A model generated the notes under the pieces. It saw nothing but the letters and a program-made list of their open reading frames with translations. It searched no databases and had not been told where the DNA came from. A stretch of DNA of 20,469 nucleotides from IMG/VR virus record IMGVR_UViG_2671180724_000020; one strand, 5' to 3'. Of the stretch, positions 19,874 to 20,469 are shown one piece after another. Every line of letters starts with the position of its first letter. Positions within the stretch are counted from its first letter, which is position 1. A program made the position numbers and the translations under genes. This DNA is from a virus. Lineage: Duplodnaviria; Heunggongvirae; Uroviricota; Caudoviricetes.

Positions 19874-20305
19874 ATGTTTGGAATCTTCAAAAAGAAAACC
19901 CGCAGAGCGGCAGCGGAAATTAAAAAGTTTGAGAAACGCGATCTGGCACAGGCGGTGATTAACGCTGCATACCTGGTGGCCTATGCAGATGGTGAATGCG
20001 AGGCATCCGAGAAAGCGAAGATCGAACAGGTCTTACGTAATCAGCCTGCGTTGTCTGCGTTTACCTCGGAAATTAATGCGATTAGCGCAACCATTATCGG
20101 TCAGCTGGATACCAATTTTAAAATTGGTCGTCGTGCCGCGTTACGCGAGATTGAGGATGTGAAACACGATACGCGTGAAGCGGAAGATGTGCTGGATGTG
20201 GCGGTGGCCATTGCGGAGGCAGACGGCGAAATTGAGCCGGAAGAGCGCAAGGTGCTGGAAGAGATTGCCGGTGTTCTGGGTCTTCGTCTGGAGAATCACC
20301 TGTGA
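19874..20305 (+). CDS. TerB-family (tellurite-resistance-like) protein
   Basis: 143 aa from the ATG at 19874 (AAGGAA upstream). Two TerB-like repeats (AAYLVAYADGECEASEKAKI and VAVAIAEADGEIEPEERKVLEEIAGVLGL) align with the KP-TerB pattern as I recall it. Confidence 0.75.
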   Translation: MFGIFKKKTRRAAAEIKKFEKRDLAQAVINAAYLVAYADGECEASEKAKIEQVLRNQPALSAFTSEINAISATIIGQLDTNFKIGRRAALREIEDVKHDTREAEDVLDVAVAIAEADGEIEPEERKVLEEIAGVLGLRLENHL

Positions 20306-20469
20306 CGGTAAAACTGCGCCTGGCTGTGGCTGCACTCCTGCTGTTTCTGGTGGTGATGGTGGATTTCACCACCAGAATCATGTCGGTGCTGGCGGATGGG
20401 GTGCTGGTCTGCGGCATTGTGGTATTGCTGTGGCCGGTGATAAAAAGAAACAGCCTGCATAATGCTTGA
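20302..20469 (+). CDS. Small hydrophobic membrane peptide (55 aa), absent from the ORF track
   Basis: GTG start overlapping the TerB stop, with GGAG 8 nt upstream. Translation VTVKLRLAVAALLLFLVVMVDFTTRIMSVLADGVLVCGIVVLLWPVIKRNSLHNA has two hydrophobic helices. Stop is TGA at the window end. Confidence 0.4.
   Translation: MTVKLRLAVAALLLFLVVMVDFTTRIMSVLADGVLVCGIVVLLWPVIKRNSLHNA

Follow-up and report, generated by a model that had tools for sequence, protein, structure and literature searches.

The 3' end of the virus sequence IMGVR_UViG_2671180724_000020 (Caudoviricetes; 20,469 nucleotides (nt), the whole stretch analysed and hereafter the window) carries two overlapping genes that we identify, with near certainty, as tciA and tciB, an already known and annotated pair belonging to the family of phage P1, here minus tciC. 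The pair is preceded by an intrinsic terminator and a leader of ~110 nt that is very probably a real structured RNA. The reading that best explains the locus as a whole, to which we give a probability of roughly 55%, is that of a tciAB cassette serving lytic growth and encoding a membrane-tethered TerB module. The unit would comprise the terminator, the pseudoknotted leader, tciA and tciB:

19717-19742, + strand: intrinsic terminator, an 8-bp GC-rich hairpin (19717-19736) followed by T6 (terminator scan)
19748-19855, + strand: structured leader, ~110 nt, with covariation-supported helices and a pseudoknot
19860-19866, + strand: Shine-Dalgarno sequence AAAGGAA of tciA, 7 nt 5' of the ATG and, after a 4-nt gap, 3' of the last leader helix (P4, 3' strand)
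19874-20305, + strand: tciA, ATG start, 143 amino acids (aa), TerB-fold protein
20302-20469, + strand: tciB, GTG start, 55 aa, predicted helical-hairpin membrane peptide

Identity and conservation of the tciA-tciB pair

The preliminary description of this locus had proposed a TerB-family protein followed by a hydrophobic two-helix peptide with an overlapping start, and both assignments were borne out. TciA matches the Pfam family TerB (PF05099) over residues 26-138 with 60.2 bits (cut-off 24.4) and shows a distant sequence relationship to the solved Klebsiella TerB structure (2JXU, E 4.4e-8). Its AlphaFold model is all-helical, with eight helices and a predicted local distance difference test score (pLDDT) of 88, and the top matches of this model in a PDB fold search were 2H5N (probability 1.0, TM-score 0.55-0.62) followed by 2OU3, the 'tellurite resistance protein of COG3793', which speaks for a genuine TerB fold. 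Two acidic repeats, D39, G40, E46 and D117, G118, E124, are invariant or nearly so in our alignments (A1 and A5); Anantharaman et al. are said to have described in 2012 two repeated acidic motifs (aDG....E) that define the TerB family and bind metal. In charge and hydropathy analysis TciA has no hydrophobic segment and is acidic (net charge -6), its N-terminal 22 residues being basic (net +7). The protein is thus predicted to be a soluble, cytoplasmic TerB-fold protein with a strongly basic N-terminal helix. Its scores against DUF533 (23.9 bits, far under the cut-off of 29.6) and the NCBIfam model of DjlA (28.6 bits, cut-off 162) reflect the shared TerB-like domain or segment only; it is not a DjlA, and no J domain was found in it by profile search.

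Database names (RefSeq, 'tellurite resistance TerB family protein'; PHROGs, phrog_632 'tellurite resistance', 1.7e-69) suggest a genuine tellurite-resistance determinant, a reading we consider highly improbable. TciA does share its Pfam family, helical fold, length of ~150 aa and acidic repeats with the TerB of the terZABCDEF cluster, but the relationship to that operon protein (2JXU) is the distant one given above, and the partners TerC, TerD, TerE, TerZ and TerA were found neither in the window nor in the 25-kb context of the complete prophage that contains the window (L001). Unlike the multi-pass TerC, the partner encoded here is a 55-aa peptide. Authors of phage genome papers likewise conclude against tellurite resistance.

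The GTG start of tciB shares three bases with the TGA stop of tciA, as GTGA, and a GGAG stands at 20290-20293, 8 nt 5' of this start. From this arrangement tciB appears to be translationally coupled to tciA, and since start and stop overlap, both products would be made together. TciB matches Pfam DUF3927 (PF13064) over residues 3-51 with 59.2 bits (cut-off 25). Its hydropathy profile displays two hydrophobic segments (residues 7-20 and 26-45), with a net charge of +2 at each end, and a DFTTR loop between them that is conserved as DFT(S/T)R; helix 2 contains an acidic residue (D32). The positive-inside rule would place both termini in the cytoplasm, giving a predicted inner-membrane hairpin. 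PHROGs places the peptide in phrog_1470 ('TciB-like inhibition of cell division or resistance to colicin', 5e-29). The preliminary description had noted that this open reading frame (ORF) was omitted from its ORF list; the ORF is real, but it is not missing from public annotation, RefSeq already giving it as 'DUF3927 family protein'. The window stops exactly at the tciB stop codon. A search of a 5.8-billion-protein collection with TciB returned nearly exclusively E. coli (Escherichia coli) copies and no informative architectures.

The genes tciA and tciB of phage P1 (Lobocka et al.) received their names in 2004 by homology only. TciA of the window is 42% identical to P1 TciA over the full length (E 8e-24), TciB is 48% identical to P1 TciB and also aligns with the TciB of Pollock, phage 434 and Erwinia phages, and TciA is 97% identical to the annotated tciA product of Escherichia phage JLK-2012. 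The names tciA and tciB are already used in the annotation of JLK-2012, phage 434, Pollock and others. The window pair resembles tciA-tciB-tciC of P1 in gene order, in overlapping stop and start codons (by 1 nt between tciA and tciB in P1, as GTGA here) and in the nearby DNA methyltransferase and tRNA genes. It differs in that tciC was not found at this locus, tciB being followed in the complete prophage by 205 nt corresponding to the small RNA (sRNA) STnc100. An ATG at 20462 that overlaps the tciB stop was considered as the start of a tciC equivalent and rejected, its product being a non-hydrophobic 26-aa sequence encoded inside the STnc100 sRNA. The two loci also differ in their control regions: P1 uses the C1-controlled ban promoter, whereas the window pair is expected to be expressed through Q-dependent late transcription.

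Homologues of TciA occur in 131 phage records, including obligately lytic N4-like, Erwinia and Salmonella jumbo, Pseudomonas and Vibrio phages. In Pollock, an N4-like lytic phage, and in Erwinia jumbo phages the next gene after tciA is tciB. Across ~140 loci examined the tciB frame is kept with a -4 (GTGA) or -1 overlap; these loci include prophages of Pantoea, Franconibacter, 'Enterobacter' pulveris and Pseudescherichia, as well as a Bilophila metagenome-assembled genome, Oceanisphaera, P1, Pollock and Erwinia jumbo phages. Wherever TciA is at least 70% identical to that of the window, tciA and tciB nearly always overlap or are direct neighbours, and a genome scan with a narrower TciA alignment returned 16 loci. 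Judged by these comparisons tciA and tciB have stayed together as one conserved unit in phages of unrelated types, and the conservation in related prophages that the preliminary description had proposed to check extends across genera. In E. coli, 800 of 5,426 complete genomes (~15%) contain the pair at a coverage of at least 80%, while the 1,145 E. coli genomes with any match have it at a median of 4 and a maximum of 10 places; it is especially frequent, and often multi-copy, in lineages of Shiga toxin-producing E. coli (STEC). Other E. coli genomes contain 75-nt matches to the 5' end of tciA under the label 'DUF3927 domain-containing protein'; these were set aside as pseudogene remnants beside insertion sequence elements.

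Pairwise ratios of nonsynonymous to synonymous substitution rates (dN/dS) are 0.02-0.05 for tciA and ~0.2-0.45 for tciB; both genes are under purifying selection. TciA is ~90% identical at the protein level across enterobacterial genera, with silent sites near saturation, and conservation of this strength implies a real benefit to the phage. A few prophage copies of the pair are frameshifted or truncated. Among them, P0124 and P0186 are TciA-TciB fusions of 170-197 aa with both Pfam domains, and others have a truncated TciB (L025, L033 and L037 belong to the frameshifted set); these are likely products of cryptic-prophage decay or of sequencing errors. A joint MAFFT alignment of TciA, TciB and the fusions (A4) was discarded, the short peptides being misaligned in it.

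The leader upstream of tciA

In Pantoea-type prophages lacking an upstream tRNA, the 130 nt 5' of tciA are still 64-74% identical, and in Erwinia jumbo phages they remain recognisable. In the following structure, obtained from alignment pairing, the percentages and both-side changes refer to 54 distinct model-aligned sequences, in an alignment that was fitted to PK1, P2 and P3 and not to P1 or P4 and that represents a modest number of independent lineages:

19748-52 with 19759-63, + strand: helix P1; 98.5% paired, both-side changes in 5 of 5 pairs
19754-58 (loop of helix P1) with 19840-44, + strand: pseudoknot PK1; 99.6% paired, both-side changes in 3 of 5 pairs
19771-78 with 19819-26, + strand: helix P2, enclosing the 5' strand of P4 and hairpin P3; 97.4% paired, both-side changes in 6 of 8 pairs
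19804-08 with 19812-16, + strand: variable hairpin P3; 97.3% paired, both-side changes in 4 of 5 pairs
19787-94 with 19848-55, + strand: helix P4, ending 4 nt before the Shine-Dalgarno sequence; 93.6% paired, both-side changes in 2 of 8 pairs

Slid controls on the same alignment gave 2-65% pairing. In a MAFFT alignment of 53 distinct sequences, 96.5% of the cells of the proposed structure are paired and 10 pairs have changed on both sides, against 35-51% and 1-4 pairs when the partners are slid by 1-3 columns. The pseudoknot is a clear example of such covariation: at position 16/100 the pair is U-A in 28 sequences, C-G in 18, A-U in 6 and G-C in 1, and PK1 as a whole exists in seven covarying versions (loop strand / downstream strand):

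version 1: CGCCC / GGGCG
version 2: CGCUC / GAGCG
version 3: GGCUC / GAGCC
version 4: CGCAC / GUGCG
version 5: UCUCAC / GUGAGA
version 6: UCGCAC / GUGCGA
version 7: CCGCA / UGCGG

A junction YCUUUCRG is nearly invariant, and so, or fully so, is the AAAGG of the tciA Shine-Dalgarno sequence in the leader alignments. An RNAalifold consensus that merged P1 and PK1 into one long-range helix was rejected, as the hairpin-plus-pseudoknot arrangement fits the Erwinia and the diverged copies better.

A profile search located the leader in 138 of the first 170 loci, each time directly before tciA, and a pattern scan recovered it in at least 120 DNA stretches of IMG/VR. Among the matches listed in that scan tciA follows in 116 of 123. 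In two contigs the leader lies ~2.5-3.9 kb 5' of tciA, which starts at 4001 (L031, leader at 1329-1466; L033, leader at 16-153), suggesting an insertion between leader and gene. Covariance-model searches further retrieved diverged copies scoring 23-67 bits, each with a terminator on its 5' side:

L187: 8851-8996
L279: 8791-8937
L227: 3827-3972 and 1350-1492
L230: 154-276
L192: 3696-3818
L071: 7136-7278

These copies keep every helix by compensatory changes and stand before other genes of the late region, namely one for an ANT/KilAC antirepressor-like protein in a lysis cassette (Pfam ANT, 2.7e-28), two for unknown proteins, and one Bro-N-like and one KilA-N-like gene, the last two judged by eye from the N-terminal sequence. 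Compensatory variants likewise preserve the terminator hairpin, both in other clades and in every diverged copy, and the terminator is a conserved 5' component of the tciAB cassette.

The conservation of this region could have been that of a recombination or module-boundary sequence, or of an N-terminal coding extension of tciA, and not that of a functional RNA. The longest ORF does run from a GTG at 19802 through part of the leader, some gene callers extend the tciA product upstream (P0122, P0134), and boundaries in phage mosaics are often conserved. But indels of 1 nt between homologues break the frame upstream of tciA and so rule out the coding explanation, and the extensions of these two proteins have next to no sequence in common. 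The compensatory double changes that keep the helices (with all five pairs of helix P1 covarying) and the retention of every helix in copies before unrelated genes also argue against this alternative, which we regard as improbable.

In Rfam 15 no family matches the window leader even at E values up to 10, and none matches the diverged copy of L187; a weak, partial STnc100 match (20.8 bits against a threshold of 47) lies over the tRNA end and the terminator. The sRNAs PasA, PasC and PasD were rejected as the identity of the leader since they map elsewhere, to the interval between esterase and holin genes or just 5' of the esterase gene. Phage P1 (L002), which is without a structured leader before tciA, gives no match to the leader model. 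We found no description of the leader in the literature searched, which did not include a catalogue of ~10,000 candidate viral structured RNAs (PMC10690425). That terminator and pseudoknotted leader together represent an undescribed class of cis-acting phage RNA, gating accessory genes in the late operon of lambdoid Stx-type prophages and in some jumbo phages, is a tentative proposal that falls a little short of an even chance. Like the pseudoknot of T4 gene 32 and the H-type pseudoknot riboswitches, the leader is compact, conserved and pseudoknotted and ends a few nt before the Shine-Dalgarno sequence; unlike them, it is always preceded by a terminator, serves several unrelated genes and has no Rfam match. 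With such a range of unrelated genes behind it, the leader is unlikely to be autoregulated by the protein encoded downstream. Its candidate roles are those of a riboswitch, of an element for processing or self-cleavage, or of a site bound by a common factor from phage or host, and in the tciAB cassette it would control translation or processing.

Expression and possible function of the pair

The preliminary description had placed the pair in the cargo slot behind the phage tRNA genes, and this position is confirmed: tciA and tciB lie between the phage tRNAs and the esterase and lysis genes, in the slot that stx occupies in Stx phages. In the complete prophage (L001) the order is Q, an inverted two-gene cassette, a small ORF, a DNA methylase gene, tRNA-Ile, tRNA-Arg and then the pair, followed on its 3' side by a DUF6645 esterase-like gene, holin and lysozyme. 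JLK-2012 has Q, three tRNAs, tciA, tciB, yjhS (esterase), S, R and Rz, and in Stx1 phages the toxin operon stands directly 5' of the same esterase gene. In P1 the order is dmt, the C1-controlled ban promoter, tRNA-Asn, tRNA-Thr, plp and upl on the opposite strand, tciA, tciB, tciC, tRNA-Ile and ban, with tciA and tciB belonging to the C1-operator-controlled ban operon. A simple consensus scan found no sigma-70-like site on the + strand between the terminator and the tciA ATG. Expression during lytic growth is expected because of the upstream terminator, the lack of a promoter-like site, the position in a Q-dependent late operon and the C1 control in P1, and we consider it probable that tciAB is expressed in the lytic cycle and not in the lysogen. 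The cassette, without a promoter of its own, would depend wholly on Q-modified RNA polymerase passing the terminator (19717-19742) in lytic development, as is the case for stx2 in the same slot.

This bears on the membrane-stress or exclusion module suggested in the preliminary description, here taken as a lysogenic-conversion module in which the prophage expresses the TerB protein and the peptide in the lysogen against superinfection or membrane stress. Such a role would suit the known cargo position behind the tRNAs and the nearby inverted two-gene cassette (DUF6731 and an unknown protein), which is also cargo-like. Published work, moreover, ascribes to the plasmid ter cluster, of which TerB is a member, both the inhibition of phages and a resistance to pore-forming colicins, and TerB domains are present in the defence systems Shango and Bunzi, for which a surveillance of the membrane has been suggested. 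Shango and Bunzi, however, are multi-gene systems with helicase/ATPase or large transmembrane proteins; none is encoded here, and Shango-type helicase/ATPase partners are not present among the neighbours in the complete prophage. Against PADLOC-DB v2 TciA gave only a weak PDC-S48 match (E 0.0035, 14.5 bits) and TciB none. The same pair is found in obligately lytic phages (N4-like and jumbo), a terminator stands directly upstream with no promoter-like site found, and the operon of P1 is under the C1 repressor. Defence or exclusion by the lysogen thus came out as unsupported and somewhat disfavoured, and we regard it as unlikely; the occurrence in strictly lytic phages and the position behind a terminator in the Q-dependent late operon favour a function that serves the phage itself in its lytic cycle. 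Such a function might include the exclusion of superinfecting phages while infection is under way.

A regulator of lysis timing, in which the pair would modulate holin triggering or the membrane potential before lysis in the manner of an antiholin, is another conceivable lytic function, and a quite unlikely one. In lambdoid prophages the pair belongs to the late operon a few kb 5' of the holin and endolysin genes, and TciB, as a small peptide with two transmembrane segments, is of holin-like size. In P1, Pollock and the Erwinia jumbo phages, however, the pair is not adjacent to the lysis genes, and profile searches found no match of TciA or TciB to holin or antiholin families.

A link to the tRNA genes, such as a joint action with them against tRNA-targeting colicins or anticodon nucleases, appears very improbable to us. 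The gene tciA does stand beside tRNA clusters in lambdoid prophages (Ile/Arg/Arg or Asn/Thr/Gly), JLK-2012, P1 (Asn and Thr upstream, Ile downstream), Erwinia jumbo phages (Trp and Cys upstream, four downstream), the Bilophila contig and Franconibacter. Yet many tciA loci have no tRNA within 1 kb (Pantoea-type prophages, Pollock, Oceanisphaera), tRNA regions are general hotspots of accessory genes, and nothing in TciA or TciB suggests RNA binding.

In the reading we prefer, the lytic cassette with a membrane-tethered TerB module, TciB would tether or partner TciA at the inner face of the membrane. The chances of this tether model itself we see as evenly balanced. It is supported by the +7 N-terminal tail of TciA, a protein without hydrophobic segment, and by the two hydrophobic helices of TciB with their basic ends; TerB has also been reported as membrane-associated. 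The natural frameshift fusions are topologically compatible with a cytoplasmic N-terminus of TciB, and we rejected them as evidence of an interaction, P0124 and P0186 being frameshift products. TciA and TciB would then be a two-piece equivalent of the membrane-anchored proteins DjlA (a transmembrane segment, a TerB-like and a J domain) and DUF533/YebE, or of TerB with TerC. With DjlA and DUF533/YebE the pair would share a TerB-like domain at the cytoplasmic face of the inner membrane, as we propose for TciA, whereas the anchor would here be a separate, co-translated peptide, and the J domain is missing. The complex may condition the inner membrane of the infected cell for the phage, through the membrane potential or ion balance, or through resistance to pore-forming insults or premature collapse. 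Such a membrane-protecting role, for which we see a minor chance only, is suggested by analogy, namely with the resistance to colicins and phages that the plasmid ter cluster confers, and not by evidence on tellurite resistance.

Several observations weigh against this reading or parts of it. TerB is the only member of the ter cluster with a homologue here, which limits the analogy on which membrane protection rests. In a CRISPR interference study of P1, tciA, tciB and tciC were non-essential, and the tci operon is reported as lost from nearly half of one P1 subgroup. In the literature searched we found no experiment on the function of tciA or tciB. More distant TerB-like phage proteins occur without DUF3927, and in the AlphaFold single-chain model of the fusion P0124 the TciB part is of low confidence (pLDDT ~50-66), which makes the model uninformative about a complex. 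The negative promoter result comes from a simple consensus scan, so that low-level expression in the lysogen is possible. Finally, DUF3927 is not tied to TerB, since in phages 434 and 2B8 a DUF3927 peptide follows an unrelated 247-aa membrane protein without Pfam match (in 434, L004 3112-4344); another membrane protein of 62 aa comes after it, all in the same slot between Q and esterase. Authors who report a tciA homologue in lytic phages give its role as unknown.

Pseudomonas phage AF has a TerB-like protein 45% identical to TciA and, overlapping its stop by GTGA, an unannotated 73-aa ORF (L087 2432-2653) with one strong transmembrane segment. This ORF is not DUF3927 and looks like an analogous small membrane partner, which suggests as a general theme a TerB-like protein with a co-translated small membrane partner and counts in favour of the tether model.

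Neighbouring features and significance

The tRNA region upstream of the terminator and the sRNA region behind the pair (in the complete prophage, beyond the end of the window) comprise:

19472-19547, + strand: tRNA with anticodon CAU, called Met by ARAGORN and tRNA-Ile by RefSeq (Rfam tRNA, 68.3 bits)
19548-19627, + strand: decayed tRNA-Arg (anticodon TCG), recognised by alignment with L089 and called by neither ARAGORN nor Rfam
19628-19704, + strand: tRNA-Arg (anticodon UCU), called by ARAGORN (Rfam tRNA, 66.7 bits)
L001 13078-13344: STnc100 (+ strand) and AgvB (- strand) region, before the esterase gene (Rfam)

Compared with the intact tRNA-Arg(tcg) of L089, the middle tRNA is a pseudogene in which a 12-nt deletion removes the anticodon loop and point changes have accumulated; about half of the related contigs retain all three tRNAs of the usual Ile/Arg/Arg trio. 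The sRNAs directly after tciB in the complete prophage are STnc100 (PasD-like, 155.8 bits, + strand) and the anti-GcvB sRNA AgvB (96.5 bits, - strand).

Between Q and the late genes stands an inverted cassette (16353-17741, - strand) with two genes, one for a DUF6731 protein (313 aa) and one for an unknown protein (147 aa). The cassette resembles inserted cargo, and no PADLOC match to it was found. A hairpin at 16331-16355, right after Q and at the end of this cassette, appears by eye to be a bidirectional terminator. The late region starts, after a terminator-like hairpin (17879-17891), with a 75-aa ORF (17995-18222, + strand) that RefSeq lists as hypothetical and that has only faint MarR- and DnaD_N-like matches. 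The tRNA/tciAB region is preceded by a DNA methyltransferase gene (18373-19431), as it is in P1 (dmt; L002 1-1944), the two phages being otherwise unrelated.

The pair is common in E. coli, occupies the slot of the Shiga toxin genes and occurs in phages as different as temperate, plasmid-like, lytic and jumbo ones. A TerB domain with a lone membrane partner of 55 aa would be the simplest system available for learning what TerB domains do, a question that bears on the ter resistance cluster, DjlA, Shango and Bunzi. To the specialist, however, it is the leader and not the gene pair that may be new. If it is, the late operon of Stx-type phages would possess a widespread regulatory RNA, and this would offer a handle on how accessory genes are insulated and expressed there.

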